A stretch of DNA of 64,000 nt from an uncultured virus (IMG/VR IMGVR_UViG_3300031627_000893) (lineage: Duplodnaviria > Heunggongvirae > Uroviricota > Caudoviricetes). The position numbers were made by a program, and so were the translations under genes. The notes beneath the pieces were generated by a model. That model had not been told where the DNA came from, did not search any database, and was given only the letters and a program-made list of their open reading frames with translations. This document shows positions 18,033-45,939 of this stretch, piece after piece. Within the stretch, counting starts at the first letter, position 1; each line of letters begins with the position of its first letter. Where the stretch lies: IMG/VR virus record IMGVR_UViG_3300031627_000893; one strand, given 5' to 3'.

Positions 18033-18035
18033 GCC

Positions 18036-21000: not shown

Positions 21001-22166
21001 TAGATCTGTCAGAGTCAGAAATGAGCCCTGAAAATTTAAGGTACAAATATACATATGCCGACCAAGTTTCTGCGGCGAGTTCCTTCAACAGCGTACCAAT
21101 CAGAGATTACGATGTAGTTGTTGAAGCGATAAATGGCATTGGCGAAAGTAGTGCAGGAACAATAGGCTCAAATGGGGCTACCAATCCAGTTGGCTATGAC
21201 ATCTTAAATATTAGAAACCCTCAGATTTCGAAGATACCATTGACTCCAGAAACTAGCCTAGAAGAATGCTTAACGACCGGAAGTACGGCTTCGTTCTGTA
21301 CTCAACAATGGCTTAACGCCGACAAAGAAATCATCATTAGCCTACTCAAGGCTCCATCCCTTTTCTTAGAGAATACGACTATCGTTGGCGGACTTTTGCT
21401 GTTTTCCGCAAACGATTTTCAAGCCGCAATAGATAACGAGAATATCAAAAGCGAGACTTGGAGGACCAATAATGGAATCATTACTCAAACTTTTTTAAAC
21501 AACGGCAACGGCACGGACTCAATCACGATACCTACCAACCTAACCGACAAAAAAGGCTATATGGCTATAGCTTTAGCTGACGATTTAGATATGTTGTTAA
21601 GGAAAAACGCTTTAAACGGCAATGAGGACAAACTGCTGGACTCTATATTCCCTCAACTTTCAAATTCTGTATTCGTTAAGGATAATGTCGATCCTCCAAA
21701 AGATGTAGTGGTTGAAAGCGTTGACTTCGATATATCCTCTGATACTACAGTGGATTTGCCACCGTCCTGCATTTTAGTCACCGGGTACATTAGATATAGC
21801 ATGAACCAAGAAAATGGGGCCAGAGCAGTAGTGCAACTAAAAACAGGGGCGGGAATTCAGCAGACTATTGACCTCGGAGGTGCTACCGGAGGGGACAGAA
21901 CTGGTAATGTATTTGGAGACGATGCCATGAAATTGACCTACACTACAACCGGAAGCAAGAAAAGCCCTTCGAGGACGGTGTATTATAATGTAGACACAAA
22001 TGTTAGCGTTGATAAAGGAATGGTAGTCCAAGACTCTTTCTGCTTCGCCATACCACAAATGAGTCCGCCCATTGATAATATTAGAATTTTTAAAGGCAAC
22101 GGAGCCAATCCCATGGTGGGCAAGGTTCAACAATTTGTTAGATTTATTAACCCTTTACTCGCTTAG
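18036..22166 (+). CDS. Central tail tip / host-specificity protein, lambda gpJ-like
   Basis: DLLCEGEIEGL, WTDNPVWCYYDLITNKRYGLG, YCDTMVPDGYGGVEPRFTCN, LRPGDVI, and a fibronectin-III-like YYFRVYSQN segment. Confidence 0.9.
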   Translation: MILRNNDNRLYPWLINGKSVPMPFGGNMLFAIPDEEDEGITLQVDKSGGDLDRAISVSDATVVDLLCEGEIEGLNEYELIGTGVAGKVGYDSVTKKTFAAIRTEAVPDEGPVPLWITDGVKFLRSIKWNGLPVVNGLDQFNYQQVNISTTHGLADGGINYGLSEELDIFRSIGERLRGHKENFEEFAKVYRIDNKNAKGCTVTIKFQGLQYTEKKSEEEYGDVRDTTVDYEIFYRSVHDNKVTVNPIDIQFVSGGKVTVTGKITAPYLKSTTIDFSGIPNVYTEGHIGWEVKIVRYTEDSLSTEITNTTIVDSISEIYGQTYRYPHSVAVQTKFSAEFFTRIPTRNFDARLMKVKIPADYNSVLRRYGQTYNGVANPYWKGDFKAEKTWTDNPVWCYYDLITNKRYGLGKYINEDSLDKWTLYEISKYCDTMVPDGYGGVEPRFTCNMLINSRTEAFRLINDLSSVFRGLAFYYGGQIHTVIDEPKSPITLFTNSNVVSGEFVYSSSSKKARATVAIVTYRDKRDDFKRNVEYVEDVQGIRKFGIRYKEISGVGITSRGQARRLGLWSIYTAALDTETVAFDTGIEASILRPGDVIRVQDANKTTKRYCGRCTVASDAITFTLDDSSDDFTINRSSSSTYNFEIIVPAYRIDSGQIDLTGKYTSNDTRASDLAKSQVVVFKITGNQISSSNPRVVTLNTNQLNQTLKTAMSKEFITGKDLTWVLEPTGNTVTLSGENDQASKLFRILNLHEKEGGSHFSVSALEHNPNKFSNIDNDESYDLPISNPSVNPPLAVELESQNHTTNTKKIKYTIIPSDEVGVYGYLVYAKKAENWDGDDFTQTDSSLGSSDAALSSIPNDEFLIGSLSLGDLTNFYIPSSSATYYFRVYSQNRLGTPSSTSAPNSVTVTGVNPIYDTEIQRLSLVSALSSDQALSQAAGTTTTQITDVSEPIITWETSVAGLNADISYGYKITIRAPSRDNRPSTVIYKTIDLSESEMSPENLRYKYTYADQVSAASSFNSVPIRDYDVVVEAINGIGESSAGTIGSNGATNPVGYDILNIRNPQISKIPLTPETSLEECLTTGSTASFCTQQWLNADKEIIISLLKAPSLFLENTTIVGGLLLFSANDFQAAIDNENIKSETWRTNNGIITQTFLNNGNGTDSITIPTNLTDKKGYMAIALADDLDMLLRKNALNGNEDKLLDSIFPQLSNSVFVKDNVDPPKDVVVESVDFDISSDTTVDLPPSCILVTGYIRYSMNQENGARAVVQLKTGAGIQQTIDLGGATGGDRTGNVFGDDAMKLTYTTTGSKKSPSRTVYYNVDTNVSVDKGMVVQDSFCFAIPQMSPPIDNIRIFKGNGANPMVGKVQQFVRFINPLLA

Positions 22167-22193
22167 AGAATATAATAACAGGAGGAAACTAAA

Positions 22194-23093
22194 ATGGCCA
22201 AAGTAGTAGATTATTTCGCTTCAATTAAATCTGGGACCGATAGGGTCGTAGGCCAAGCCGATAATGACTGGGAGACAGTCAGGGACGGTAGTCACTTGAA
22301 ATTCGTAAACGATCCTGTTCACTACCTAGTGGCTAGTACTAAAAAATATTTTTTCATTAAATCCTTCACCTCTGATGACGGGAAATCGATTCTAATACCA
22401 GAAGACACTGGAATAGAAATGATGCTCAACGATACCGTTACGATAAGCTACAAGGATTATGAGGTTATCGATGTTACGAGTGTCACGGATGGAGGTTCTG
22501 GGTACTCTCTCGGGGACTCATTGCAGTTGAGTAGTTTCAGTCCAAGCTTAAACAGTTTTAATAACGCACTAGGAGTCGCTTTGTTTAAGGTCGATAGTGT
22601 AGACAAAGACGGTAAAATTACTTCGCTGAACGTCGATGACAAGGGCTCCTATCATTCCCCAATTACAGATGAAGAAGTCAGCTTGACTGGGGGCTCTGGG
22701 TCTTCAGCGAAAGTAAAACTTTTAGGCAATCTAAAAGAGAATAGGAATTCCATCGAAAGATCTATAGTGTCGGTAGACAGAGGGGCTGACGGAGGCACTA
22801 GAGTCTTCCTTAACTACAGCGTTCCGAAACTAATTACAGATGGTAAAGCGTCTGTTCATAAATGGGAGCTAAGGTTAAGCTCCGATTACAAAGGAACAGA
22901 CAAAATCGAACAAGTATGCACAATTACTAGAGACTTTACTCTAAAATTTGGATTTCCTCTAATGGCTGCTAACTCGATGAACGGGGACGTAGCTCACAAT
23001 GAATCTGTACGGAAAATAGATACGTTAGTATCTGACCTGCAAAATAAAGTCCAAGCCTTGGAAGAAAAGATTAATTCCTTGGAGAATAAATAA
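22194..23093 (+). CDS. Hypothetical virion protein with C-terminal coiled coil
   Basis: GGAGG RBS; VTDGGSGYSLGD motif seen in tail/baseplate proteins; heptad C-terminus. Confidence 0.5.
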   Translation: MAKVVDYFASIKSGTDRVVGQADNDWETVRDGSHLKFVNDPVHYLVASTKKYFFIKSFTSDDGKSILIPEDTGIEMMLNDTVTISYKDYEVIDVTSVTDGGSGYSLGDSLQLSSFSPSLNSFNNALGVALFKVDSVDKDGKITSLNVDDKGSYHSPITDEEVSLTGGSGSSAKVKLLGNLKENRNSIERSIVSVDRGADGGTRVFLNYSVPKLITDGKASVHKWELRLSSDYKGTDKIEQVCTITRDFTLKFGFPLMAANSMNGDVAHNESVRKIDTLVSDLQNKVQALEEKINSLENK

Positions 23094-23095
23094 GT

Positions 23096-26000
23096 TTATT
23101 TAAAAAGAAGCCCACCGGGTCTCTGCTCTTTCAGTATCACATCAACCACACCAAACTTAATCTTCTCGGATAACTCCTTGTCCTTCTCTGCTCTTGCTCT
23201 CATATCTTCGATGTCGTTTCCTGTCCCGCCTTCTGTGGCCCGTCCAGATGTTTCTGTCTTTGAGGAGGAACCACCAGCATCATCCATGCTGACCGAAATA
23301 TTTATATTATTCGTTACGTTAGATGGGGTACTAGAGCCTTGCGCGTTAATGGTATTAGATGGACCGCCTTGTCTGTCCGATTCTTGAGCAGTTTGTTGCT
23401 CTTCAATAGCGGTTCTCACGCCCCTAACTTCATTTATAAGCTCTGTCACAGAATCGCTCAACCCTAGCCCTCCAGCACCAGCGTCTGTGCCTACGAAGCT
23501 CCCTTCTGATGCCCGATCTGAAGTCACGTACCCGCCATCTGCGTAGCCTTTTGTTCTGCCACCTCCATTTATCCTCTTTAAAATGCCCATGTTCCGAGCG
23601 GCGTCATCTGCGTTAACTACGAATTCGCCTTCTGTAAGCATCGCGGGGACCGTATCTGTACCTAATTCTGCCCCGAAAACAGATCCCCCTTTGCTGAAGC
23701 CTCCAGCCTTTTTGTAATTAAAGTCGTACCACTCTTGCTGATCGTACATCGATCCAGTTTCTTGACTGGGTGTGTACTTCTTGTGCGTGAATAATTTCGA
23801 AAACCAGCTTTTTTCCCCTTTTGCTCGGGACTTGTTAGCGGCATCCATCTTGCTCGAGACTGTTTTATTCTCTCCCGCAATAACACCGGAGACCTCCTTT
23901 ATGAATTCCTCTTTTTCTAATTTTTTCTTAGCGTCGTCAGCGGCCTGTTTCGCAATATTCTTCTTCTCATTCTGCGCGTTCCATTCTTGCATTCTCGGTA
24001 ATGCCTCGTTCGTCATTATCCCTGACCCAAATCCAGCTACCGCACCTGTTATGGCTCCCTTTTTGCCACCCATAAGCCCTCCTGCTAATGCGCCTAGTGC
24101 AGTTTGCCCCCCAGTTGAAGCCATCGCGTTTCCCACCGACGCCAGAGTTTCATTTTTCGATCCCTTTAGCCCTTGCGTTCCGATAAGCATTGCAGCATCG
24201 AGCCAAGCCCCCGTGATCATAGCGTCTTTTTCGTCTTCCCACGTATCGAAAGCTGCTTTATTAGCCTTTTCTCTCTCGTAATTTTCTTTGTTATAAGAGA
24301 ACAGTGCTTCTTGTCTGTCGAACTTTATCCTGTTTTGAGGATTGATTCCTCTATCCTCTTGACCAATTTGAGATAAACTTTCGCTTACATTCATTACGCC
24401 CGAAGTGGGCTGTCTTGCGGATAATTCATCGTCAACATTTGTATCTCTGAAGAAATCGAATTGGTTTCTAGCCACGGAATTGATTGAGCCTCCTTTAGCT
24501 AATCTTTGTCCGCTATTTATTGCTCTTAAAATGTGAGAGTTCCTTTCGGCGTCTCTTGCATTAACAACAAACTCCCCTTCGGTGAGCATTGCTGGGACTT
24601 TATCTATTCCCTTTCTCCCATGCACAGTGCCCCCATTGGAAAATCCTTTTCTTTTATACCCTTTCCCTTGGGTCTTTTGTGGGTTGGAGTAGTCAGGCCC
24701 CATAAGTGCCCCAAAAAAGCTGTCCCAAGCCATGTCATGGGTTATTGACGTTATCTTAGTGAGTATGCTTGTAGCCATATCACCGAATGCATCCTTGCTG
24801 CTTTTAGCTCCGGTAGCGAAATCATGAAACGCGCCCTTAAATGAATCTTTCATTGTGGTGGCTGTCTCTGTGATAAGTCTTTGATAATCGCGCAGTTGAT
24901 CCATGTCATTATACGCGAATTGAGATTTAAATAAGTCTCCCGTTGACCCTATATCGAAAGTCCCAGACTGAGCTTGTTGGTCGTACATTATCTTTTTACT
25001 TGCCGCCAAATCCCTGCCGGATATCTCTCCTCTTCGGAATCTTCCTTCCACATCGGCTTCCTTCATTGCAGTAGCAATTGCTAATACTCTCTGCTCAAAA
25101 GAAACACTCGCCTTATCGGCTGCTAAAATAGCTATTTTGAGCTTCTCATTTACTCTGGTGTGTTGTTCTGTCCATTTTGCCGATTCCTCGGCTTGTCTGC
25201 TCGTGTCTGAGCCATAATCAACGGGTTTGTACATAGCCTGATTATACGTCTCCCCGATCCCCGCCAAACGCTGATCGTTGATATGTCCTTCAGCCATCCC
25301 CGCACCTCGCAACATGTCCCTTATGCTACTAGTAGTGCCTACAGGCGACACAGGTCTTCCTGCAAAATCCCTATTAGTAGAGTAGGCGTTCGTTGTTGCG
25401 GCGGCACTGCCGCCACGTCCGCCTCCGCCAAAATTCTTTATTTGCTTGATGAAGGATTCTATTTTCCCTCTTATCATAGTCGTATAGTAATCAGAGCCTC
25501 GGCCTCCCGGATGTTCTCGATTCGTATAGAAATCAGATCCTCGGCCTCCCGGATGTGTTCGATTAAACCCAGAGTCTCTTGCTCCCCCAGATTGGCCAGA
25601 AGCGGATCGAGCATCGGTATATTGCGTTCCTTCCGTATATTGACCACCACGAACAGGAGCATTGCCTAGGCTATTACTAATTCTTGCGTCTCGCTTTTGC
25701 GATTCTTCCCAAGCTCTCGGTCCACTCCACGGCCCTCTGGTGTCTTTATCTGCTTTCAAGTAACTCTGATATCCTGACGACCAAGGGGACTTTGTTCCAG
25801 CAGCATCATGCTCTTCTTGTCTACTAAGATTTCTATCGTGATGAGTAGTCGCTTGTCCTCCTTTTTTCTTCTCATCCGCTCTTTGCTTGGATATATCAGC
25901 GAACCATTGGTAAAATTTGGCTCCCATCGATACCGGAGGCGTAGTGAATTGCTGCGCTGGGGCGTATGATGGTCTCAAATCAGACGCTGGAGGCATTCCG

Positions 26001-29000
26001 TAGCCTTCCCGAACGGAGGTTTCAGCCCCGACATAAGGCACTCCAGATCGCCCAGATGCTCCTCGTCTTCCGACGTTCCCTTGGGCTCCGACACTACCGT
26101 AGCCGCCACCGCTGCCACTAGCACTACCAGAACCTCCATTAGCCCCATAAGGTAGTCCGGTATCCGGGTCGATGTCCCCCACTCCAAAAGGCAGCCCGGT
26201 AGCTTTATCAATGCCTCCCACTCTACCACCTGAGCCCTTTTTACGGCTCAACTTTTCAATATTTGCTCTCAAAATCGCCAGTTCAGCATTTAGTTTTTTT
26301 ACTGATGCAGTTTCGTCATCGTAAATTTTTTTCTGTTCAAGGACGACATCTTTCAGCATCTCGCGATGCTGCTTTAGCTGTGTAAGCAACACTAGTTGTT
26401 TATCAGTCGTTTGATCTTTGTAATCGGGGTAAATCAACCCATTTTTGTCTGTTGCTTCTCTGGCAACCTTATCCGCCGCTTTGCTATTTTCGATTTTTCG
26501 AATCTGAAATTCCATCTCTTTCAGTGTCGTGACCAAGAAGTCCATCCCTCCTTGGACATCAAAATCACTGCTTAACATTTGAGTGGTCCTGTCCCTCATC
26601 TGTTGTCCTGTCAACATAGGGTAAAGCTCTTGTTCTTTGCTCCCGACGAAATCAGAGTCAAGTCGCTTCCCCTGATTGATCATCTGATAAGCGTTCATCA
26701 CCTCTGTCCGCAAGAGAGACTCTGCTGATAGTTTCTTTTGACCCGATCTATCTTTTTCGGTTTCCTTGACTTCTTGATTTCTTATTTCCACTAATGCATC
26801 CAACTTATTTTTTACGTCAAGGCCGTAGTTAGGATCAAAAACAGATTCAAGAGCCCTTTTAAATCTTACCTCATTCTCGGCGTTATCCGTAATCAAAGCT
26901 TCATTGGCGGATTGTATCTTCGCTTTTATATCTTGCAATGATTGAGGTATGCCCCCCTTTAACACTGACTGAACCTGTTGTTCTGCGGCAACCATGTTTC
27001 CCTTTTTCGTCATCATCTCATCGGTGATGCTCCCGTGGCCTAAGCCACTTGCGTCCATCTCTCTAGCTGCCCGAGCCATTTGCTCGGCTCGAGATGATAT
27101 CGAGCTTTCTATTAGTCCCTTGGGTAAGTCCTTAGACGCGACCCCCATGTAATTCTTTAGAAAATCAGCTTCTTTAAAATCTTGCATTCCGCTTCCGATA
27201 GATCGCCCTACCCCCATTTTGTTAGTGTTACGCCGCCCTTCTCTGAGATCATCCATTCTTGATAAAGCCGAAAATGGGCCTGATTTAAATTCAGCTACCC
27301 CTCCTTGCCTTTCTAAATTCCTTTGTATCTCAAGCGATTTGATAGCGTACTCGTTTCTTAAACTTTGAAGAGTGATAGAGTGGTCTATTTTTTGCGCGAC
27401 AAGAGCTAAATTGACATCAGAGTCTATCCTGAGACCTTTTAAGGTTTCTAATACTTGGACCTGCAATGCTCTACCTGCATCACCCCCGCTTAGAACTGTG
27501 CTATCTCTTACTGTGGCTGTAACAGAGCTCAATAAGTCGCTCCCTACAACTCCGCCCTTTTGTCCTGCTTGAGCGAGTTCAAAAATTCTATTTAATTCCC
27601 TCTGTTCAGCAGATGTTTTCTGCTGCAAAAGCTTTTGAGTAGACACCTCTTGGTCTGTCGCTCCCCCACCCAAGCCCTGAATGTAACTAGTTTGCCTAGT
27701 CCCTGCTTTAGCTATCCCCGCGACTATGGCATCGAATGTCCCCAAGGTCGTCTTATTTTCTTGCTTCCTTAAATTCATTTGACCCGCCGAACCAATCTTC
27801 CGCATAGTTAATTGGTTAGCGTTATCCAAATTAGCTTCTTTGGTCAAAAATGGAGATAGCGTTCTTTGGCCCAAGGCCATAGTCTCAAGATTCATACTGG
27901 CCTTGTTTCCAAGATCATTAAGCCCCAAAGACTGTGTCCCGCCTAAAAACTTTCCAAAATTCTTCACTGCGTTCCTCATGGAAAATTCAACTCTTTCAGA
28001 GACGGCAGCTAAATCTTGAGCAGCAATCTTCGCATTTGCTGCAAAATCTCTATTCTTTTTGGATATGCTTTTAAACAAGTCTGCCCAGTCGTTCGCCGAC
28101 TTCAATTCATGCCCAAAATTTGCGAACGCCTTTTGTATTTTCATGAAGTCCTTGGTCCTCATACCCAGCATTTCATTTTGTTGCTCGGGAGATACTCCAA
28201 CTTCCTTCATCTGAGTCCTCAAGTCCATGGAATTGTTTGCTCTATCTGACCCTTCAAACATTTTAATTATGTCTTTGGCCTCCATGTCTTTGATATTGCT
28301 TGACTGGATCAAAGAATTGGCAAACTTATCGAACATCACTTTGCCCTCAGGGCTATCCAGCTTACTGAAAACATCTCCAGCAGACTTACGTAATGCTTCT
28401 GTATGGTTCATCCCTTCCCCAATCAATCGTTCTGCTTCATTTCCCGTCTCACCGCCGAGACCTAGCATAGTTCCCTTGACCGTGTGTTCTAGATACGCCA
28501 TGATTCCACCAGAAGAGTTGCTCTCTTTAAATTTTTGAAATTCTACTGCCCCTCCTAATCCTTCTGCTCTATCGCGAAGCCTTGATCCTACTCGTGCTAT
28601 GTTGTCTGTCAGGGTCTGCATGTCCCCACTAAACCCTTGCATCACGTTGGCTCTCTCTGAATCTGGAATTGCGGCTAAAGATAGCGAAAACTGCTTCCTT
28701 CTTCTCCCCATCTCTACCGCCCCTATGGAGTCAGTAGCGTCATTTAGCCCCCTTACGTAACCAGCGTACGTTCTTGTGACTTGTTGAGTGCCTGAATTAA
28801 ACTTATTTAAAGTATTTTTAGATTCCTCAAAAACTTTAAGCAATTCCCCTGTCGCATTGGTATACTCATTCACTATGGAATTCACGCCCATCGCTAACCC
28901 AATTGTGCCACCTATTACCGCTCCCGCCGCAGCACCCGGTGCACCCCCAGTTGACCCTATCATAGCTCCCATACCTGCCATTGACCCCATACTACCGAGT

Positions 29001-32000
29001 GCGCCTACTCCCGCTCTACCCCTTCTAGCCGATTCGTTGTCTCCCGGAAACATACCTTGTCCCACCATTCCAGCTACAATTGGAGCGGCCATGGTGATTC
29101 CTAGACCCATTCTCCCCATCCCCGCTGCAAGTTTCATGGCCCTTTGATTCTTGTAAGGATTATTCGTCTTCGGGTCTCTTAGTGTTCCTTTTTTTGCATC
29201 ATCCGCAGCCTGTAGGGATTTAATCCTTGATTGATTTGCGTTGCTTTGATTGATGGCGGCAGTCCTAATCACAGTCCGTTGATTTTTCTCATTCTGCGCG
29301 TTTATTTTTTGCTGCTCTTGTAGATTTATCCTATTTTGTTGTGTTTGCTGTTCGAAGTTAGCCGACGCATTTCTACGAGCATTAAGCTCTTTTCTCCTCT
29401 CATCCTGCTCGACCTTGGATGTCCCTTGCTGCTGTTTTCTCTCCTTATCAGTTAACGTGCCGCCTTCCGATATTGGTTTGCCTTCTACTGACTTCTCTAA
29501 AAAAGCGGTGGTCGCACCTCTAACTTTTGCGTCGGTGGAGAAACCAAGGTTTACGCCTTGGGTTTGGGCCATTCTGTATGTAGACGAGGAGGTTCCCGTA
29601 GGAGATGTTAATGTTTTAGTAAGGCTCTTTTGCTCGTTAGTCAAAGTTGACAACTGTTTATTCGTCTTCGACGCCTCGGCCTCAATCCCTTTTAATATCT
29701 TCTGCTGCACTTTCATATCGGATTTGGACTCTGCTACTGCTCTTCTGTTTTTTTCCGCATCTTCTTGGTGTCCTTGGATTTGTTCAGCCTTATTTGTCCC
29801 TTGCCCCATCCCCATAAAGCCCATAGCGGCGAAACTCAAAGCTGTCGCACCAGTCATCCCTGAATCTCCCCCCATGAAGAAGTTAGGCACTCCGCCTTCG
29901 GCTGCTCCAGTTCTCCTTAAAGTCGAGGGGGATTGACCAGCATTCAGATGCTGACTAATCGCATTACCCAAACTGCCTTGATTGCTACTGTAAACTCCGA
30001 CTCCTACTCGGTTGTCGTATCCAATCATCGGCTTCGCAGCGGACCCCGATTCCTTTATTCCCATTCTCTCCGCTGAAACTGCCCTCTCTAACGGGTTATT
30101 AAAGTTGGGAACAAATCCCCCGCTAAATCTACGCATCATCGCCAAACGCTGAAGAAGAATGTTCTTGGTCCCTGTACTCCCTGTAATTTTCGAAGGGTCT
30201 ATCCCTTTTATCTGTTTTCTAAGTTCCGAATCCTTTACATCGCCAAACCACTCAGAGGAAGAACGACTAGGGTCTCTCAATGAAGCTAACTCTCGAACTT
30301 GAGATCCGAACATATCCCCTTTAAGCCCACCTTGAGCTCTATAACGTAATGCTCCACCCGAATCTATTTGAACGACCTTGCCCTTCTTATCTACCATCAT
30401 GTTGTCTTGAGACATACCAATCGCATCCCAGTCAGCCATCAGCGCAATCTTCGCTGCACGACTTTGGATTTGCTTCATGATGTTATCTTTTTCTCCGGGT
30501 AAAGCAGACCTCATGTAAGTCCCCAGAGAAGTCCCACCTTCCAAATATTTAGAGAGCATGAAAGATCTTCCCTGTGGCGTCTTGTTCAGCGAATGATCTG
30601 GAACTGGGACTCCTAAAGATCTGTATATTTTATTAGCTTCAAATTCATTTATGATGTGACCATTAGAAGCACCAAATTTACGGACAAGTTTTTCTCCAGA
30701 CGGATCTAGCATTAACTCAGCACCAGTTGATCCTCCCAAATTGGCTAGTTTCTGCAAATTAAAGTTAGGCACGAATCCCGAAGAAAAATAGTCATCTTTC
30801 GGGATCGGGTAAGCCTTTTCTTGCTCCGAATGGGTTTTAAAACTACCCGGTTTCCCAAACCCTTTTATTTCATTAGAAGGCCAATCTTTGTAGCCTAACT
30901 TCATAAGACTGGTTTTAGCACTCCCCGTACCTGCTCCTTGCTTAAACATCGACGGCATTAGCAAGGAAATCTCTCTTTCGTGATCGAAACCATATCTCGC
31001 TCCGCTTCCTGTTGGTCCTGAGATACCAAACTTTTGGGGATCGAAACCTAGCGGTCTTCCTTGAGCCATGTTATACAGAGAATTTAAAGAACCCTCTTTT
31101 TTATAGAGTGCTTCTATCTCTTTTTGCCCGAATATGTCTTTGCCGGAAAGTCTAGTTTTAGCCATGTACCCATAACCCTTGTCAGAGCCATGTCTCATAG
31201 CGAACGTACTAGCAACGTGTTTATTCGTGGACGCAGACATGAAAGGATCAAGACCAGAATTGTTAAAGCCAGTCACTGACATATTGCCATCTGACGAATT
31301 CCCTATGTGTTTCGAAAGAGCTTTTTTAAGCTGATCGGGGGTTGACGGCATTCCGATATTCGGTATCCTCCCTTGCCATATGCCCATCCTCCCAGATAAT
31401 GCATCCTGAACAGTCCCCGCTCCTCCGCCAAGAGCTTCAGGGAGCCTTTGCCTTGCTAGTGCTCTCCTTCCTTCGATACCTCTGTAAACTTCCGTCATAC
31501 CGAAATTCGGAATATGACCTTTCCCTAGAGTTTTATTGAAGAACCTTTCTCCTGGCCAAGGGTTACCATTGCCGGTGAAACCGTGCCCATCGCCTTGTCC
31601 TTTTCTGCTTAATCCCATCCATTTATAGTAGCTTCTAGCTTTTTCCCTAAAGCTCCCTTGACCGGGTTCGTTTTTTATCCTATCTATAACTGCACGACGT
31701 ATTTCTTGCGATTTATCCTTCCTTCCTACGTCAAAATCACCCGTTAATTTTTTTATTCCTAATTTTTTCAGGATTTTTGCTCCTCTTGGTGTCATTAACG
31801 TCTTGATCACGGGCGGACCAACTATGGTGGGAGCGTGAAGAGTATGAAATTTCTCAATCTGGCCTAGGTTCTCTCCAGTCCTCGCGAATTCGGCTCTCCG
31901 TTCCGAGTTTGTCATCTTACTTATCTGATCGACTCTTGCGCTCCTCTGCTTTATCTGATTAATTAATCCCTTCAATCCTCCTACCCCCGACATGTATCCT

Positions 32001-35000
32001 ATGTTTAGCTGTCCGCCATGATCACTAATGCCGCTTTGCCAACTTGAGCGATGGATGGTCCCCGGAAACTTCGTGGCGCGTTGGGCTAAGGCTCCCATGT
32101 TCAAGGAGAAATTCGGAACATGACCTCCTGCTAGAGTCTTATTGAATTCCCTTCCTCCCGAATATCCAGAGCCTAGATGTCCCCCGGTTTTGCTGAGCCA
32201 CTTCGGATTAAGAGGCGTCGAGCTCTCCGGTTTTTTTAATCCTAGCCATTTATAGTAGCTTTTACTTTTTTTCAGAAAGCTCCCTTGACCGGGTTCATCT
32301 TTTATTCGTTGGACAAGTGCCTTGCGTATATAAGGCATTTTGGCGTTAAAATTACCCGTTAAATTTTTTATCCCTAACCCTTTAAGGATAGCCACTCCTC
32401 TTGGTGTCATCAACGACTTGATCACTTTTGGGCCAACTATGTTGGGAGCATGAAGAGTAGTATAAGCACCAGGCCCATTTCCATACTCAGCCGCGTTTTG
32501 CCTATTCCTTATCTTATTAATTAATCCCTTCATTCCCCCTACCTTTGACAGCCAGTCTATGGTTAGCGTTGAAGTGTCACTTCTTCCGGCAGAAAGAAAA
32601 TTACTCGGGGAAGCCTCCGAATGGGTCCGAAGGTAGCTCGGCTTTTGGCGTCCGGGTAGCGGTGGTAGCGGTGGGTCCATTGGCGACGGTAGCGGTGGTC
32701 GTGGGTCTCCGCCAACCAAACGGTCGAACCTTCGCGGTGGTAGGAGGCCAAAATTCGGGATATGACCTTTCCCTAGAGTTTTTTCGAACATCCTGACGCC
32801 CCTGCTATGGCCTTTCCGTTTTTTCATTCCCAGCCATTTATAGTAGCTTTTAGTTTTTTGCAGGAAGCTCCCGTGACCGGGTTCGTTTTTTATTCTATCT
32901 ACAATTGCGCGACGAAAATCACTGTAAGGCTCCTTCGCTGACTGACCAATGTCAAAATCACCCGTTAATTTTTTTATCCCTAACCTTTTAAGGACAGACG
33001 CTCCTCTTGGCGTTATTAACGACCTGATTACCTGCGGACCAACTATGGTGGGAGCGTTAAGAGTATGATAAGGCTGAATATTCGGTACGGCTGTTCCTGT
33101 CCTAACGAATATGTCTCTCCGTTCCGCTTTTGACATCTTGCTTATCCTCTCAGCGTATGCCTTCCTATCTTTTATCTGAGTAGCTAATCCCTTCATTCCC
33201 CCTACACCTGACATGTAGCCTATGTCTAACTCTCCCAATCGCAATTCCCGACCGCCACTTGCCCGATCAACGTCAGAACTACTAGCCCAGTCTGAGCGTC
33301 TCCTTTGAGCTGCGAACTTCGTGGGTGGCTTCGCGTTCGTCTGCGTTGACCAAAATGGCTTCGGCGGAGCAGCGATTCGAGTGGCTTGGCCCCGTTGAAA
33401 GGCTCCCATCATATTGAAATTCGGAACGAAGCCTCCAGAATAAGTCAGAAGACCTTTCTCGTGAAGCTTGATGAGACGTGGGTCTCTAAGGGCGGGAACC
33501 CCCAGTATCCCCTGAGATTGCCCTTCGATTTCCTGTTGGGCCCTTATCTGGTTTTTTTCGGGGGTCTCTCTCGGACGACCGCCCAACCTCGAAAGAGGCA
33601 CTTCTTTAATACCCGTTATTGCTCGAGGATCAGTGATATGCAGACTAGGCAATATATCAGAATACTTCAGGTGTTTAGATGTTTGGTAAGCCTTATGACT
33701 CAGTCCTTCATATACGTTTCTATAATTGAAGGCTCTTATTCCTCTCTGCGCCTCTAACTCTTTGAAGAACGCTTGGCGGTTGGGAGCCCAATTAGTAGAC
33801 ATCCCCAACTCATCTAACCCTAGTCTTTCCTCGAATGCCAGTTTAGCTTTCGGGTTATTCGCATATCCTTGTTTATTAAAGCCACCCGGAGTTCTCATCA
33901 AACCCCTGTTCACGGCCCACTCTGCCAAGTCGTCTATTCCTCTACCCCCGAAATCAGGAGACCTAGCTATCTGGTTCTTCTGTAAATTAGTAGTTATTTC
34001 ATATAATGAACGTCCTCCTCCCTCTCCCTCTAATTGCTTGAAGATTCCTTCCCGCATCCCTCGCTGACCAGCGACATGAAGACCCCCGAAATCAGAATGG
34101 GTATAGAAATTATTCTGCCAATTTTTTATCTTACCTATTTTGCCGTAGTGCAAAAAGCTCAATGGGTTAAAGTTCGGTACGAAGCCTTCGGCTCCCATCT
34201 GCTGACCCATCGCACGGCCAATTCTATCTGGTCGGCTACTTGAGTATGGGTCTATCCCTGTCTTAGCAATAGATTTGATCCTATGCTTTTTACCTGCCTT
34301 GCTATCCTTTGGCGGACTAATAAAAGGTTGCTTGAAGCCGCCTAAAAAATCAACTTTCTCTGCATCGTTGTAGGTCACCTTACCTACCCCAGCCATACTA
34401 AAGCTCTTGACCTCGCCCGGACTGTAGCCTCCAGCATAAGCGTTTACCCTTTCTGCCGTCCTGTTCTGCGCGTTAGTTTCGGGTATGTGTCCAGACGCTC
34501 TCCCTCTCCCTCCTCCCATTTGGAAGCCTCCTGTTTTCGAGTTCTGTATCATCCCCCCTCTCATTCCCATCGCGGCGACATTCATCCCGAGAAGAGAATT
34601 CTGCTGCATCGCCACGCCTTGGGCTCTTATAGAGGCTAAGATGTCTTTTTGAACCATAGCCATCGAACTCGTCCTTGAAAGAGATAGTTGGATTAACTGA
34701 GGATTTTGAGCCAACATTTCGTTGATCTGCTTTTGGAGCGTCCTCTGCTGTGTGGTTGCGTCATTTATGCCTATGATTTGCCTTAGCGCGATTCCCGAAA
34801 ACTTTATAGCACTACCCAATGTTTTCGCTATGGCTACCACCGCTATACCTAATCCGGGTCCAGATATAGCCGCCCCTAACCCTTTGATAAGACCTTTCCC
34901 GATATTAGCTCCTAATCCTTCCGCCCCTTCTTTTGGGGTAAGAGCCTCCGATATCTTACCTCCTATATTTAAAATATTCTTCAGGGCTGGGCCCACCAAG

Positions 35001-36157
35001 TCCTTACCTATTACTGCTCCAAATTCTTTGAACGACTCTGTAACTTTATTGACTAACGCTGATATCGTAAGATTTAATTGAGCATTTCTCTGTAGCGCAG
35101 AATTATTATTCCTCAACGCTATCTCTTGCGCTTGATCAAAGAGACTGTACTCTTTCGATAAGTCGGAAATTGCTGCCATCAATTGGTTAACTTGATACAA
35201 GCCACCAGCCATGATCTTGACTTGCTGCTGTTGAGATTGGCCTAGACCATCGTACGCCTTGGCTGTATTCTTCAAGATTTGCAAACTGTTAAGCCATTGT
35301 CCGTTTTGTTCTTTTACCTTAATACCCATCGCATCTAACTGCTCCATGGCCTTGGGCCTTTGGATCTTGACAAAAATGGACTTAATTGCGTTACCAATAA
35401 CAGGAGCGTTAAGAGCGGTCTTTTGTTTAATCACTGTTATCAACGCGCCAAGCTCCTCGAAAGAAACACCAGCAGTAGCAGCGGCAGAAGCTGATCTTTT
35501 CAGGGCCTCCGCCAAGTCCCCAGTGCTTACGGCAAAATTAGCATCCAAGTTAGCAAGTTTATTAACGACCTGAGTAGAGGTGAGACCAGCGGCGGTAAAA
35601 GTATTCATCGCGGCAGTGAGAGCTTCAACTGCTGCTTTGGAATCTAAACCAGAAAGACGGACTAATACCATCGCGTCCCTAACCCTTATCATAACCTGCT
35701 CGGTGGTAAGACCTTGCCGTGCTAACTCATTAGCAGAATCAGCTACAGTACCAAAAGCCTGACCCGTATCTTTGGCTATTGCGAATAATTTACTGCGAAA
35801 ATCTGAAAGCTCCGATGTCGTCCCTTTTAAAAGAACATTGATTTGGGCTAGTCTTTTCTCTACATCAATTGTACTCGAAACTAACTCCTTCATTGCCGAG
35901 CCAACAGCATATATAGCTCCAGCGGAAGCCCCAAAAGCAAAAACACGAGCATTGGCAGCAGCCATTGACTTCCCAAACTGATCTGCTCCTTGAGTCATTG
36001 ACCCAAGAGCCATCTTAGAAGCACCCGAATCGGAAGATGAAATAGGGTTAAATTTTGCCTTTTTCTCTATCCTGTTAAGAGAACTCTTAACATTCCTCTC
36101 TAGACCCCTAGTGTCTAGTCTTGCTCTAACGTCAATAGTTGCTACTGGTGCTGCCAT
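23096..36157 (-). CDS. Tape measure protein (4353 aa) with an inserted array of effector-like cassettes
   Basis: TP901-like TMP core (ELARQG...LDANFAVSTGDLAEAL...IGNAIKSIF), position after tube and chaperone genes, Gly-rich hydrophobic segments, and C-terminal VPAMLTEGEFVVNA repeats. Confidence 0.92.
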   Translation of the reverse strand: MAAPVATIDVRARLDTRGLERNVKSSLNRIEKKAKFNPISSSDSGASKMALGSMTQGADQFGKSMAAANARVFAFGASAGAIYAVGSAMKELVSSTIDVEKRLAQINVLLKGTTSELSDFRSKLFAIAKDTGQAFGTVADSANELARQGLTTEQVMIRVRDAMVLVRLSGLDSKAAVEALTAAMNTFTAAGLTSTQVVNKLANLDANFAVSTGDLAEALKRSASAAATAGVSFEELGALITVIKQKTALNAPVIGNAIKSIFVKIQRPKAMEQLDAMGIKVKEQNGQWLNSLQILKNTAKAYDGLGQSQQQQVKIMAGGLYQVNQLMAAISDLSKEYSLFDQAQEIALRNNNSALQRNAQLNLTISALVNKVTESFKEFGAVIGKDLVGPALKNILNIGGKISEALTPKEGAEGLGANIGKGLIKGLGAAISGPGLGIAVVAIAKTLGSAIKFSGIALRQIIGINDATTQQRTLQKQINEMLAQNPQLIQLSLSRTSSMAMVQKDILASIRAQGVAMQQNSLLGMNVAAMGMRGGMIQNSKTGGFQMGGGRGRASGHIPETNAQNRTAERVNAYAGGYSPGEVKSFSMAGVGKVTYNDAEKVDFLGGFKQPFISPPKDSKAGKKHRIKSIAKTGIDPYSSSRPDRIGRAMGQQMGAEGFVPNFNPLSFLHYGKIGKIKNWQNNFYTHSDFGGLHVAGQRGMREGIFKQLEGEGGGRSLYEITTNLQKNQIARSPDFGGRGIDDLAEWAVNRGLMRTPGGFNKQGYANNPKAKLAFEERLGLDELGMSTNWAPNRQAFFKELEAQRGIRAFNYRNVYEGLSHKAYQTSKHLKYSDILPSLHITDPRAITGIKEVPLSRLGGRPRETPEKNQIRAQQEIEGQSQGILGVPALRDPRLIKLHEKGLLTYSGGFVPNFNMMGAFQRGQATRIAAPPKPFWSTQTNAKPPTKFAAQRRRSDWASSSDVDRASGGRELRLGELDIGYMSGVGGMKGLATQIKDRKAYAERISKMSKAERRDIFVRTGTAVPNIQPYHTLNAPTIVGPQVIRSLITPRGASVLKRLGIKKLTGDFDIGQSAKEPYSDFRRAIVDRIKNEPGHGSFLQKTKSYYKWLGMKKRKGHSRGVRMFEKTLGKGHIPNFGLLPPRRFDRLVGGDPRPPLPSPMDPPLPPLPGRQKPSYLRTHSEASPSNFLSAGRSDTSTLTIDWLSKVGGMKGLINKIRNRQNAAEYGNGPGAYTTLHAPNIVGPKVIKSLMTPRGVAILKGLGIKNLTGNFNAKMPYIRKALVQRIKDEPGQGSFLKKSKSYYKWLGLKKPESSTPLNPKWLSKTGGHLGSGYSGGREFNKTLAGGHVPNFSLNMGALAQRATKFPGTIHRSSWQSGISDHGGQLNIGYMSGVGGLKGLINQIKQRSARVDQISKMTNSERRAEFARTGENLGQIEKFHTLHAPTIVGPPVIKTLMTPRGAKILKKLGIKKLTGDFDVGRKDKSQEIRRAVIDRIKNEPGQGSFREKARSYYKWMGLSRKGQGDGHGFTGNGNPWPGERFFNKTLGKGHIPNFGMTEVYRGIEGRRALARQRLPEALGGGAGTVQDALSGRMGIWQGRIPNIGMPSTPDQLKKALSKHIGNSSDGNMSVTGFNNSGLDPFMSASTNKHVASTFAMRHGSDKGYGYMAKTRLSGKDIFGQKEIEALYKKEGSLNSLYNMAQGRPLGFDPQKFGISGPTGSGARYGFDHEREISLLMPSMFKQGAGTGSAKTSLMKLGYKDWPSNEIKGFGKPGSFKTHSEQEKAYPIPKDDYFSSGFVPNFNLQKLANLGGSTGAELMLDPSGEKLVRKFGASNGHIINEFEANKIYRSLGVPVPDHSLNKTPQGRSFMLSKYLEGGTSLGTYMRSALPGEKDNIMKQIQSRAAKIALMADWDAIGMSQDNMMVDKKGKVVQIDSGGALRYRAQGGLKGDMFGSQVRELASLRDPSRSSSEWFGDVKDSELRKQIKGIDPSKITGSTGTKNILLQRLAMMRRFSGGFVPNFNNPLERAVSAERMGIKESGSAAKPMIGYDNRVGVGVYSSNQGSLGNAISQHLNAGQSPSTLRRTGAAEGGVPNFFMGGDSGMTGATALSFAAMGFMGMGQGTNKAEQIQGHQEDAEKNRRAVAESKSDMKVQQKILKGIEAEASKTNKQLSTLTNEQKSLTKTLTSPTGTSSSTYRMAQTQGVNLGFSTDAKVRGATTAFLEKSVEGKPISEGGTLTDKERKQQQGTSKVEQDERRKELNARRNASANFEQQTQQNRINLQEQQKINAQNEKNQRTVIRTAAINQSNANQSRIKSLQAADDAKKGTLRDPKTNNPYKNQRAMKLAAGMGRMGLGITMAAPIVAGMVGQGMFPGDNESARRGRAGVGALGSMGSMAGMGAMIGSTGGAPGAAAGAVIGGTIGLAMGVNSIVNEYTNATGELLKVFEESKNTLNKFNSGTQQVTRTYAGYVRGLNDATDSIGAVEMGRRRKQFSLSLAAIPDSERANVMQGFSGDMQTLTDNIARVGSRLRDRAEGLGGAVEFQKFKESNSSGGIMAYLEHTVKGTMLGLGGETGNEAERLIGEGMNHTEALRKSAGDVFSKLDSPEGKVMFDKFANSLIQSSNIKDMEAKDIIKMFEGSDRANNSMDLRTQMKEVGVSPEQQNEMLGMRTKDFMKIQKAFANFGHELKSANDWADLFKSISKKNRDFAANAKIAAQDLAAVSERVEFSMRNAVKNFGKFLGGTQSLGLNDLGNKASMNLETMALGQRTLSPFLTKEANLDNANQLTMRKIGSAGQMNLRKQENKTTLGTFDAIVAGIAKAGTRQTSYIQGLGGGATDQEVSTQKLLQQKTSAEQRELNRIFELAQAGQKGGVVGSDLLSSVTATVRDSTVLSGGDAGRALQVQVLETLKGLRIDSDVNLALVAQKIDHSITLQSLRNEYAIKSLEIQRNLERQGGVAEFKSGPFSALSRMDDLREGRRNTNKMGVGRSIGSGMQDFKEADFLKNYMGVASKDLPKGLIESSISSRAEQMARAAREMDASGLGHGSITDEMMTKKGNMVAAEQQVQSVLKGGIPQSLQDIKAKIQSANEALITDNAENEVRFKRALESVFDPNYGLDVKNKLDALVEIRNQEVKETEKDRSGQKKLSAESLLRTEVMNAYQMINQGKRLDSDFVGSKEQELYPMLTGQQMRDRTTQMLSSDFDVQGGMDFLVTTLKEMEFQIRKIENSKAADKVAREATDKNGLIYPDYKDQTTDKQLVLLTQLKQHREMLKDVVLEQKKIYDDETASVKKLNAELAILRANIEKLSRKKGSGGRVGGIDKATGLPFGVGDIDPDTGLPYGANGGSGSASGSGGGYGSVGAQGNVGRRGASGRSGVPYVGAETSVREGYGMPPASDLRPSYAPAQQFTTPPVSMGAKFYQWFADISKQRADEKKKGGQATTHHDRNLSRQEEHDAAGTKSPWSSGYQSYLKADKDTRGPWSGPRAWEESQKRDARISNSLGNAPVRGGQYTEGTQYTDARSASGQSGGARDSGFNRTHPGGRGSDFYTNREHPGGRGSDYYTTMIRGKIESFIKQIKNFGGGGRGGSAAATTNAYSTNRDFAGRPVSPVGTTSSIRDMLRGAGMAEGHINDQRLAGIGETYNQAMYKPVDYGSDTSRQAEESAKWTEQHTRVNEKLKIAILAADKASVSFEQRVLAIATAMKEADVEGRFRRGEISGRDLAASKKIMYDQQAQSGTFDIGSTGDLFKSQFAYNDMDQLRDYQRLITETATTMKDSFKGAFHDFATGAKSSKDAFGDMATSILTKITSITHDMAWDSFFGALMGPDYSNPQKTQGKGYKRKGFSNGGTVHGRKGIDKVPAMLTEGEFVVNARDAERNSHILRAINSGQRLAKGGSINSVARNQFDFFRDTNVDDELSARQPTSGVMNVSESLSQIGQEDRGINPQNRIKFDRQEALFSYNKENYEREKANKAAFDTWEDEKDAMITGAWLDAAMLIGTQGLKGSKNETLASVGNAMASTGGQTALGALAGGLMGGKKGAITGAVAGFGSGIMTNEALPRMQEWNAQNEKKNIAKQAADDAKKKLEKEEFIKEVSGVIAGENKTVSSKMDAANKSRAKGEKSWFSKLFTHKKYTPSQETGSMYDQQEWYDFNYKKAGGFSKGGSVFGAELGTDTVPAMLTEGEFVVNADDAARNMGILKRINGGGRTKGYADGGYVTSDRASEGSFVGTDAGAGGLGLSDSVTELINEVRGVRTAIEEQQTAQESDRQGGPSNTINAQGSSTPSNVTNNINISVSMDDAGGSSSKTETSGRATEGGTGNDIEDMRARAEKDKELSEKIKFGVVDVILKEQRPGGLLFK
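29879..34186 (-). repeat. Eight G[FHG][VI]PNF delimiter motifs within the TMP
   Basis: Motifs at 34169-34186, 33416-33433, 32750-32767, 32108-32125, 31502-31519, 30761-30778, 30101-30118 and 29879-29896. Confidence 0.9.
31520..33415 (-). repeat. Tandem triplication of a ~200-220-aa domain within the TMP
   Basis: Three copies of GVGG.KGL...TL.AP.IVGP.VI..L.TPRG...LGIK.LTG.F...RIK.EPG.GSF...SYYKW.G, also similar at the DNA level (e.g. ccatttatagtagctt in each copy). Confidence 0.9.
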
Positions 36158-43464: not shown

Positions 43465-45507
43465 TTAGGTTTTAAACCAAACATCTCCGTTATCACCTCC
43501 ACTAGGACTGCTAGAAGATACTGTTATATTAATACTTGGCCCAGTTGCGCCAGTAGGACCTGTTCCCCCAGCGGGTCCAGCGGGACCAGTAGATCCGCCA
43601 CCACCAGCAGGGCCAGTAGCCCCTGTCGCCCCGCTAGGACCTGCGGGACCTGTGGGTCCTGTGGGCCCATTTAAGTCGTCTACTGTTCTCCATCCTACCC
43701 GCCCTTTGTCCGCAGCAGATAAAGTCAATATTTGTGCATTGCTGCCAGAGGCTGCATGTAAATAAACGTTTCCGCTTACCGCTAATCTTTCTGATTTTGC
43801 GGCGTTTGTGAACCCGACCATCAAGCTAGAGGTGCTCTCCGCGCCTATTGAAACATCACCGTCTCGGTCTAACTGAAGCCACAATGCATCGTCATCGAAA
43901 GACTGAATAGTGTTCGGTCTTTGTGATCCCGTTCCTATAGCGAGTTGCCCAGCCAATATGCCTCCAGAAGCATAAGGTATGTTAGGCACTTTTATAAGAG
44001 AGCTACTAGGATTGCTTGTGGTACTATAAACGAGACTAGTCGCTCCTGCGAAAGCACCATTATTATTATATTGAAATTCTCTATTGGAGCCCGAAGGAGT
44101 TCCTCCGCCTCCTGCTCCAGCAGGACCAGCGGGTCCAGTTGAACCAGCGGGACCAGCGGGACCAGCGGAGCCTGTAGCTCCAGTAGGACCAGCCGAACCG
44201 GCGGAACCAGCGGGTCCAGCGGGGCCTGAAGAACCTGTAGCACCAGTAGGACCACTTGAACCGGGTACACCCGCAGGACCAGCGGGACCAGCAGGGCCAG
44301 AAGATCCAACAATAGAAATTCCAGAAGCACCTGAGGGTCCAGTAGGTCCAGCGGAACCAGCGGGACCTGTGGGACCACTGGCTCCACCGGGACCAGCGGG
44401 ACCAAGGCCACCAGCGGGACCAGCGGGACCAGCGGAACCCGTAGCTCCAGAAGGACCAGTCGAACCAGCCGAACCAGCGGGTCCAGTCGAACCAGCGGGA
44501 CCAGTCGAACCAGCGGGACCAGCGGAGCCTGTAGCTCCAGTAGGACCAGCCGAACCAGCCGAACCAGCGGGTCCAGTCGAACCAGCGGGTCCAGTAGGTC
44601 CAGCGGAACCAGCGGGACCACTTGAACCGGGTGCACCCGCAGGACCAGCGGGACCAAGGCCACCAGCGGGACCAGAAGGACCAGCCGCCCCAGAAGGACC
44701 AGTCGAACCAGCCGAACCAGCGGGTCCAGTCGAACCAGCGGGACCAGTCGAACCAGCGGGACCAGCGGAACCCGTAGCTCCAGAAGGACCAGTCGAACCA
44801 GCCGAACCAGCGGGACCAGTCGAACCAGCGGGTCCAGTCGAACCAGCGGGACCAGTCGAACCAGCGGGACCAGCGGAGCCTGTAGCTCCAGTAGGACCAG
44901 CCGAACCAGCGGGACCAGCCGAACCAGCGGGACCAGCGGGTCCAGTCGAACCTCCAGCTCCCGGAATTCCTGAAGGTCCAGTAGGACCAGCCGAGCCATC
45001 CGAGCCATCGTTACCGGGGTTACCTTGGGGTCCTTGCGGACCAGCGGGACCAGCAGGTCCTCCATCTGGCCCAATAGCTCCTGAAGGGCCAACTGAACCA
45101 GAAGGACCAGTAGGTCCAGCAGGGCCAAGATTTCCTTGAGATCCTGTTGACCCTGATGGTCCAATAGGGCCCACAGGACCAGTAGAACCCACAGGACCAG
45201 TAGAACCCACAGGACCAGCAGAGCCTATAGATCCAGTCGCCCCAGAAGGACCAGTGGAACCTACTGATCCTTGAGGTCCCTGAATGCCTTGAACTCCTTG
45301 AGGCCCTTGAGACCCGGTAGGCCCAGTAGGACCAACAGGTCCTCCAGCGGGTCCTTGGGGTCCTTGGGGCCCTTGCGGACCAGCAGGACCAGAAGAACCA
45401 GCGGGACCCGAACTACCTGCGGGACCAGTAGACCCAGCAGGGCCGCTAGTCCCAGAGGGACCTGAAGGTCCGACTTCCCCTACTTGTCTGTTAATCCAAT
45501 TAGCCAT
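43465..45507 (-). CDS. Collagen-like (Gly-X-Y) fibre protein
   Basis: Long GPAGST triplet runs; [10 protein letters not shown] motif; C-terminal [12 protein letters not shown]. Confidence 0.9.
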
Positions 45508-45508
45508 T

Positions 45509-45904
45509 TTAAATATCTATATAAGTTGCAGTAGCTGTGACACGATTGCCGTGCCTTCCACTGGCGGCAAGTTTGTCCCCGTAACCCAATATGAATTTTT
45601 CACTCTGAAATTGAAAAGTTTCATAACCAGTGATATCCAAATTTTTAACGATAGTATTCCTATCAGACGCAAACTCGCCGCTGCCTAAAGCGTAAATAGA
45701 AATGTGCTCAGTACCCGCAGTATAATTGCAAAAATATAAACCTACAGAGGCTTGTTTCGTAGAGTCAGTACCGGAAACTATATCGGTTACTATAGCCCCC
45801 GTAAAACCTTGACCTGTCGGGTTTGCTGGGAACCTATGGTCTGTCTCTCCCAAATCGGGAGCGATACCGCTTCCTGTTCCTAAAATGACGCTTCTGAAAC
45901 TCAT
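45509..45904 (-). CDS. Small virion-associated protein
   Basis: 131-aa ORF between the fibre genes; AAGGA RBS. Confidence 0.55.
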
Positions 45905-45939
45905 TTTTCCTTATACCTTTTTAACAATTACACCCAATT

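Follow-up and report, generated by a model that had tools for sequence, protein, structure and literature searches.

Introduction

Phage proteins that enter a cell ahead of phage gene expression decide the first minutes of infection, in which the host is taken over and its defences are escaped. Such pre-made effectors have so far been linked mainly to the phage head, as with T4 Alt, the N4 virion RNA polymerase, MuF proteins and polyvalent proteins. Tape measure proteins (TMPs) occupy the tail tube and are the first to leave it at infection. Here we analyse the TMP gene of an uncultured marine siphovirus (IMG/VR record IMGVR_UViG_3300031627_000893), which lies in a stretch of 64,000 nucleotides that we refer to as the window. 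Its 4353-residue product, encoded by one open reading frame (ORF), carries an internal array of units, U0 to U7, each ending in the peptide G-x-[VI]-P-N-F (the P-N-F motif); one of them, U6, is predicted to be a protein kinase.

Additional domains within TMPs have precedents. The TMP of mycobacteriophage TM4 and pb2 of T5 contain embedded peptidoglycan-hydrolase motifs or domains. Together with YomI of SPbeta they resemble the window TMP in that extra functional domains sit inside the TMP and are ejected with it, but there the domains, one or two per protein, target the cell wall and lack P-N-F fences. Closer in kind is gp96 of Thermus phage P23-45, a 5002-residue TMP fused to a virion RNA polymerase (Chaban et al. 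2024, PMC10770324), which shows, according to the accessible parts of the source, that enzyme delivery by a TMP is possible. As in the reading proposed below, a giant TMP there brings in an enzyme that acts in the cytoplasm and works ahead of phage gene expression. However, gp96 carries a single N-terminal enzyme and not an internal array, and the same parts of PMC10770324 describe neither a repeated delimiting motif nor an exchange of cassettes. As far as we found, this RNA polymerase is the only precedent for a cytoplasmic enzyme borne by a TMP.

The other close comparison is with the polyvalent proteins of phages and conjugative elements, injected multi-effector proteins that include MuF-fused forms (Iyer et al. 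2017, PMC5512222). In the portion of that paper available to us these are large virion-associated proteins in which domains of the ADP-ribosyltransferase (ART), kinase, GNAT and further effector types are strung together and extensively shuffled between relatives. They belong with head, portal or MuF modules and are believed to enter the cell along with the DNA, in contrast to the window array, whose carrier is a TMP; tape measure proteins are nowhere mentioned in the paper (0 occurrences). T4 Alt, as described there, is a pre-made host-modifying ART delivered at infection, the role that we propose for candidate ART U5, but it is a separate, head-packaged protein. Neither the motif nor effector arrays in TMPs were found described in the literature searched, in which coverage of most subscription journals is wanting. 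The motif-fenced architecture is thus apparently undescribed, while the idea of multi-effector delivery and enzyme-bearing TMPs are already known.

Results

A peptide motif divides the tape measure protein into units

The 4353-residue ORF is a TMP. It scores 91.7 bits against PF10145 (Pfam cutoff 33.2), and the PHROG TMP families phrog_4211, 14917, 167 and 28 match it with a best E of 4e-43, all of these PHROG matches being confined to the N-terminal ~700 residues. It lies next to lambda-like minor tail, tail assembly and central fibre J genes (15539-22166), in the same window as tail-fibre genes (43465-48174) and a terminase (57562-59385). The gene and its array are laid out as follows:

23096..36157, minus strand: TMP gene, one ORF of 4353 residues with PF10145 and PHROG TMP families
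35216..35776, minus strand: PF10145 PhageMin_Tail domain, residues 128-314
34475..34492, minus strand: degenerate motif G-H-I-P-E-T at the array start, residues 556-561 (motif scan)
34169..34468, minus strand: U0, 100-residue opening unit conserved in the clade, residues 564-663, ending in motif 1 (34169-34186)
33416..34168, minus strand: U1, motif-bounded cassette of unassigned fold, residues 664-914, ending in motif 2 (33416-33433)
32750..33415, minus strand: U2, basic paralogous cassette (by paralogy), residues 915-1136, ending in motif 3 (32750-32767)
32108..32749, minus strand: U3, basic paralogue with a Pro-rich leader (by paralogy), residues 1137-1350, ending in motif 4 (32108-32125)
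31502..32107, minus strand: U4, basic paralogue (by paralogy), residues 1351-1552, ending in motif 5 (31502-31519)
30761..31501, minus strand: U5, candidate R-S-E ADP-ribosyltransferase (by aligned triad), residues 1553-1799, ending in motif 6 (30761-30778)
30101..30760, minus strand: U6, predicted atypical protein kinase domain (by fold and residues), residues 1800-2019, ending in motif 7 (30101-30118)
29879..30100, minus strand: U7, 74-residue closing unit and clade anchor, residues 2020-2093, ending in motif 8 (29879-29896)

A script scan of the TMP located G-x-[VI]-P-N-F at residues 658, 909, 1131, 1345, 1547, 1794, 2014 and 2088. These eight copies and their spacings of 251, 222, 214, 202, 247, 220 and 74 residues are exactly those given by an earlier inspection of the letters without database searches (the sequence-only reading), which had proposed an array of effector cassettes between 29879 and 34186, coordinates that span the last base of motif 8 to the first base of motif 1. 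The protein's own composition would lead one to expect 0.003 copies, and none of the remaining 2900 residues holds a further copy even of the looser form G-x-[VIL]-P-x-[FYL]. The degenerate copy that had been seen upstream is also present (S-G-H-I-P-E-T, residues 555-561), and 7 of 61 related ORFs have a G-phi-[VI]-P-E copy 85-104 residues ahead of the first P-N-F.

Every array unit terminates in A-[AS]-x-G-[FYLH]-[IV]-P-N-[FY]; across the clade described below, the consensus from 228 distinct contexts is A-[AS]-x-G-[FYLH]-[IV]-P-N-F-[ANS]. In 61 distinct ORFs, G-phi-[VI]-P is followed by NF (259 times), NY (24), SF (13), ET (5) or NL (5), and the G, P and N hardly ever vary. The eight copies in the window differ in codon usage, so that the conserved entity is the peptide. 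In the AlphaFold2 (AF2) models the motifs sit in low-confidence linkers (per-residue confidence, pLDDT, 46-70), and the confidently folded parts of U6 and U7 fall between motifs, in keeping with the earlier claim that domain boundaries coincide with them. We infer that the motif behaves as a short linear signal recognised by a partner, which may be a protease, the tube, a chaperone or neighbouring chains.

U6 is predicted to be an atypical protein kinase

The clearest assignment is that of U6. Its AF2 model (the run on the U6-containing model used an alignment of 93 rows) reaches a pLDDT of 92-98 and has the bilobal kinase fold; a Foldseek search against the PDB returned at least 500 matches at E<=1e-3, the top 50 of which are all kinases, and the top matches in BFVD are large phage proteins annotated as portal or ART. 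The residues G-G-S1810, K1827, E1838, D-W-D1911, D1918-N1919 and I-D1932-S-G-G were given kinase roles by sequence pattern, not from coordinates. The corresponding Gly-rich loop, ATP-binding Lys, helix-C Glu, catalytic Asp/Asn and metal-binding Asp are invariant or nearly so (alignment A3), and the family alignment retains G-S, K, E, W-D, D-N, D-x-G-G and R-A-Q-G-x-K. Fold and conserved catalytic residues thus make U6 a clear case of a predicted atypical protein kinase with an intact-looking active site. Kinase-like is what the sequence-only reading had called it, and both the model and its structural neighbours bear this out.

The sequence is remote from described kinases. No Pfam kinase family scored above its cutoff for U6, and none appeared at E<=10; other members of its family gave only sub-threshold Pfam matches, to HipA, actin-fragmin kinase, RIO and PI3/PI4 kinase. 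Identity to Helicobacter pylori CtkA and to other atypical kinases (RIO, PI4K type II, CotH, actin-fragmin kinase) is ~13-16%. In its shortness U6 resembles the truncated kinase without C-terminal subdomain that is described, in the part of the text accessible, among polyvalent proteins (PMC5512222).

U6 belongs to a kinase family usually found together with MuF and ART domains, a family in common with polyvalent proteins. It was the sole unit matched by tblastn against isolated phages; the targets are large proteins annotated as ADP-ribosyltransferase or hypothetical, and include the particle-associated gp129 of Yersinia phage fHe-Yen8-01. Among 45 longer proteins with a U6 homologue, 29 contain MuF (PF04233) and 10 the ART exoenzyme domain (PF03496), the ART beside the kinase being confirmed in 10 of the 10 checked; one homologue, P0038, also carries Zeta_toxin and ART-PolyVal domains. 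IMG/VR holds at least 567 U6-related stretches. Unlike in the window TMP, where a conserved peptide fences each module, the P-N-F motif is absent from 78 of the 79 U6-like loci examined, and the exception (L069) is another TMP. As a side observation, the MuF-type proteins P0010, P0012, P0015 and P0017 have the U6-like kinase directly ahead of the PF03496 ART. The order in the window TMP is reversed, with ART candidate U5 directly ahead of kinase U6.

Motif-fenced arrays are a feature of a clade

With the conserved U7 and its two motifs as search anchor (alignment A2), we found 57 related stretches in 54 IMG/VR loci, and 10 metagenome loci; a final word-indexed U7 search added just P0053 and P0054. 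In 54 of 54 IMG/VR loci the match lies inside an ORF of 1506-4527 residues (some clipped by contig ends) with 2-10 x-x-[VILM]-P-N-F motifs. In ORFs with a complete N-terminus the first motif is found around residue 540-650, and PF10145 occupies the matching position in all 12 related N-termini tested. The motif peptide is kept in relatives whose adjoining unit is ~30% identical. The motif is therefore a feature of the clade, not confined to the window gene.

Content differs from array to array. The 199 units of the clade fall into 50 similarity families. A word-indexed search for the array as a whole gave one long relative, P0002 (3606 residues), whose N-terminal 664 residues are 67% identical to those of the window TMP. 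It has five motif copies and a G-H-V-P-E-T, and its content differs from that of the window: U0, a 263-residue unit (34% to U5), a unique 346-residue unit, a U6-like unit (71%) and a U7-like unit (71%). Elsewhere in the clade, one cassette (relative L051, 8486-9037) matches the GNAT family PF00583 at 29.7 bits (cutoff 20.7), and another (relative L015, 7613-9340) is GHKL ATPase-like, with HATPase_c at 24 bits, slightly below the cutoff.

Units are gained, lost and replaced at the motif

The closest comparison is with L003, an IMG/VR contig whose TMP is 98-99% identical to that of the window through residue 664-674 and then continues directly with U2, so that U1 is absent. At the DNA level the left flank in L003 is that of window motif 1, and the motif codons are those of window motif 2, which places the crossover within the shared GGCTTCGT; the junction of this U1 indel falls inside 8 identical bases of the motif codons. 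Other relatives point the same way. P0003 has a U1-like unit (71%, the sole homologue of U1) followed by an unrelated unit, P0005 a U2-like unit followed by a U7-like unit, and P0007 a U5-like unit directly followed by U7, while L058 consists of U0, a U5-like unit and U7 only. In P0009 and L069 other units precede U6-U7, and P0004 and P0006 are U5-like fragments. Breakpoints in similarity between relatives coincide with the motifs. Cassette number and type thus vary between conserved flanks while the motif persists (P0002, L003, L058 and others), which is the outcome that the sequence-only reading had looked for in homologues.

The arrangement in the window is no assembly artefact, since contigs from each of four independent marine runs span the two ends of U1: X2 (records 7, 8), X5 (16), X8 (23) and X9 (32), examined over window positions 29800-34700. 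A joint that skips U1 was found in none of the contigs of these four runs, although contigs cannot prove that the shorter form is absent. Run X8 has a 24-nucleotide in-frame deletion in the linker ahead of motif 2, and the linkers of P0003 are also gapped.

Between the window and L003, the ratio of nonsynonymous to synonymous substitution rates (dN/dS) is 0.10 in the N-terminal domain, 0 in U6-U7 (dN = 0) and 0.8-1.3 in U2-U5. Many of the L003 differences lie in Pro-rich leaders, and part of them resembles frame-shifted or indel-rich segments (30761-33415).

The remaining units

Every array is bracketed by U0 and U7, both of them small units that the clade conserves. U0 is 56% identical to the U0 of P0002 and of L058 (family F3, 26 loci) and weakly similar to U7 (E 0.021), for which AF2 predicts a helix-strand-strand-helix arrangement at pLDDT 65-90. 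All array units are basic (isoelectric point, pI, 9.5-10.8), and nothing usable came from Pfam, PHROG and NCBIfam for any of the eight units or from a phmmer search of the whole array against PDB sequences.

U2, U3 and U4 had been described as three paralogous GNAT-like domains. The paralogy holds (U2 is 53% identical to U4 and 47% to U3; 47-53% overall), whereas the GNAT assignment is unsupported: GNAT families are absent even at a Pfam E<=10, and the core, an AF2 fold of moderate confidence, is chiefly helical and strongly basic. These units have a pI of 10.5-10.8 and a net charge of +20 to +26 (U2: pI 10.8, +26), with variable Pro-rich leaders; U4 had no usable match in the ESM atlas.

U5 is a candidate R-S-E ADP-ribosyltransferase from its sequence. 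The elements Y1558-R1559-G, F-M-S1641-A-S1643 and E1727-R-E1729 occur in order, and in nine related units [YF]RG is aligned in eight, S-x-S and E-x-E in all. Their spacing is ~85-90 residues; R-S-E spacing in C3-like ARTs is roughly half of this. The triad of the earlier R-S-E ART proposal therefore stands, whereas no profile or reliable fold backs it: U5 has no Pfam match, its family profile finds nothing significant in the PDB, hhalign scores it at 5.8% against PF03496 regions, and AF2 gave an unreliable model. The same reading had taken U1 as ART-like, and here the case is weak or unsupported. ESM-feature neighbours of U1 carry ART-PolyVal PF18760 (score 0.90, 160 shared features), which is a lead only; U1 has no Pfam match at E<=10, and hhalign against the ART-PolyVal protein P0038 gives 0.1%. 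Links of U2 and U5 to many other units, produced by an untrimmed iterative hidden Markov model search, were gone once the last 14 residues were removed and were dismissed as drift through the shared motif flank.

Discussion

The observations of the sequence-only reading are confirmed and its interpretation is partly supported. Given the spacing of the motif, the kinase fold and the family that it shares with MuF and ART proteins, the arrays across the clade and the in-frame exchange of units at the motif, we think it probable, with considerable room for doubt, that this is a TMP with exchangeable enzyme cassettes that are carried into the host. The array would have been acquired between the conserved N-terminal TMP domain and the hydrophobic and helical ruler part, and would resemble a polyvalent protein, with U0 opening, six cassettes (U1, U2-U4, U5 and U6) following and U7 closing. 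Because the TMP fills the tail tube and leaves first, the cassettes would travel with it into the host at infection. There their targets may be host proteins or nucleic acids, modified before phage gene expression in take-over or anti-defence; kinase, ART and GNAT chemistry needs the cytoplasmic cofactors ATP, NAD and acetyl-CoA, which would put the site of action inside the cell. The motif would be a linear inter-domain signal that is read as a peptide and that each unit must bear to be tolerated in the TMP, possibly as a processing site, or as a docking site for tube, chaperone or neighbouring chains. With selection favouring in-frame products that run from motif to motif, the motif would then appear as a recombination boundary.

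Several results weigh against this explanation. Only one of the four cassette families of the window has a confirmed enzyme fold: in terms of polyvalent-type domains, the kinase is confirmed, U5 is a candidate by its triad, U1 a weak lead and the fold of U2-U4 unassigned. U1-U5 have no Pfam, PHROG or NCBIfam match, and phmmer searches with them against 1.84 billion representatives gave five relatives, all fragments of related TMPs. The AF2 model of U1 is unusable (pLDDT <50), and that of U5 is all-helical (pLDDT 32-72). Among representative units of relatives, 45 of 47 lack an enzyme-pointing Pfam family at E<=0.01. The dN/dS of ~0.8-1.3 in U2-U5 fits an arms race, and equally fits relaxed constraint on dispensable linkers. 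Finally, three copies each of seven folded domains of 200-250 residues fit poorly in a tail lumen of ~4 nm, so that storage in an unfolded or staggered state would be required.

The alternatives differ mainly in what they make of the motif. It could be a protease site and the TMP a polyprotein, cut by a phage or host protease at or beside G-phi-[IV]-P-N-[FY], so that each cassette is freed as an enzyme, either within the virion or once ejected. A short linear peptide that is strictly conserved wherever units meet, its position in low-confidence linkers and the variable length of the linker ahead of it are what such a site would look like, and TMP processing is known for lambda gpH and T5 pb2. 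Yet no protease was recognised among the window genes, and we know of no cleavage or autoprocessing signature that fits P-N-F. The authors of the P23-45 study, in the accessible parts of PMC10770324, moreover propose that the TMP-fused RNA polymerase remains with the TMP pore. Overall we consider cleavage at the motif rather unlikely, while taking it seriously. That the motif is a DNA-level recombination anchor alone, providing microhomology for shuffling with no role as a peptide, is very improbable. The U1 indel junction inside 8 identical bases of the motif codons and the breakpoints between relatives at motifs are what one would expect of it, and to this extent the recombination role proposed by the sequence-only reading is supported; but the eight copies differ in codons, and a motif whose DNA is not conserved between copies leaves its persistence unexplained by a purely DNA-level anchor. 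The peptide also persists where the adjoining unit is only ~30% identical, and the near-invariant G, P and N indicate selection on the protein.

Two further explanations concern the cassettes. The units might be mainly structural filler that tunes tail length or fills the lumen, the motif being a packing or registration element and the kinase an occasional passenger. A recognisable enzyme family is missing from most units, U0 and U7 look non-enzymatic, and unit number is freely variable; the basic character of all units would suit a negatively charged tube lumen. This is nonetheless improbable in view of a kinase that retains all catalytic residues and has not a single nonsynonymous difference from L003, of a kinase family otherwise found with MuF and ART domains, of GNAT and GHKL-like cassettes in relatives, and of the R / S-x-S / E-x-E triad retained in the U5 family. 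Alternatively, the cassettes could act in the cell envelope and aid breach by the tail, like the wall hydrolase domains of other TMPs, which are well established (the SPbeta TMP YomI is annotated 'putative transglycosylase'). With no hydrolase family from Pfam, PHROG or NCBIfam in any window unit, and with the cofactors of kinase, ART and GNAT enzymes being cytoplasmic, we find this hardly credible.

If exchangeable enzyme cassettes are indeed carried into the host by the TMP, the tail lumen would be a general cargo hold in a clade of marine phages, which would account for TMPs thousands of residues longer than a ruler requires. P-N-F would be a defined adaptor peptide, amenable to proteomics and to the engineering of cargo delivery, and a kinase family common to MuF and TMP contexts would be a tangible example of effectors exchanged between two routes of delivery. 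A wider proposal is tentative, and we hold it possible but doubtful: that the P-N-F peptide is the universal cargo adaptor of a second effector route, through the tail and not the head, that any motif-flanked domain can ride in the TMP and be set free or exposed inside the host before the DNA arrives, that marine siphoviruses thereby field fast-changing host-modifying and anti-defence enzymes, and that kinase and ART have moved between the head (MuF) and tail (TMP) routes.

Other features of the TMP and the window

Beyond the array, the TMP contains these features:

29801..29878, minus strand: Gly/Met-rich hydrophobic stretch directly past the array, residues 2094-2119 (sequence reading)
28868..29131, minus strand: hydrophobic Gly-rich segments, residues 2343-2430 (Kyte-Doolittle windows >1.2)
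24560..24598, minus strand: V-P-A-M-L-T-E-G-E-F-V-V-N, copy 1, residues 3854-3866 (sequence scan)
23612..23650, minus strand: V-P-A-M-L-T-E-G-E-F-V-V-N, copy 2, residues 4170-4182 (sequence scan)

The last of these is a second conserved short motif, near the C-terminus of the TMP, and P0002 has two copies as well.

Among isolated phages, tblastn with the TMP N-terminus found no close TMP, the best matches being SPbeta-like and Lactococcus 949-like TMPs at 25-28% identity. PDB sequence searches with the two genes upstream of the TMP gave nothing useful. A scan of GTDB genomes yielded no prophage host; its single locus was a chance match in a 138-residue ORF and was dismissed. The phage or close strains of it occur in seawater and marine metagenomes of several studies, with nine runs containing at least half of the sampled words.

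The order of the tail genes is not the usual one of siphoviruses. Lambda-like genes for the tail tip (M/L/K/I/J-like), together with a head-decoration-like gene (15539-23093, plus strand), are convergent with the TMP gene (23096-36157, minus strand) instead of following it downstream on its own strand. An ORF (3-9074, minus strand) of at least 3024 residues, situated immediately downstream of the tail region, extends past the window start; no Pfam family matched it at E<=0.001. A 625-residue protein with IPT/TIG domains (PF01833, 79.7 bits; 11277-13154, minus strand) is probably a surface-binding virion protein. An ERCC4-type nuclease-like gene directly adjoins the terminase, with a sigma-factor-like gene close by (59385-60347 and 61445-62143, minus strand). 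Two collagen-like tail fibre genes (43465-48174, minus strand) match a local rise in G+C, to 0.52-0.57 compared with ~0.42 elsewhere.

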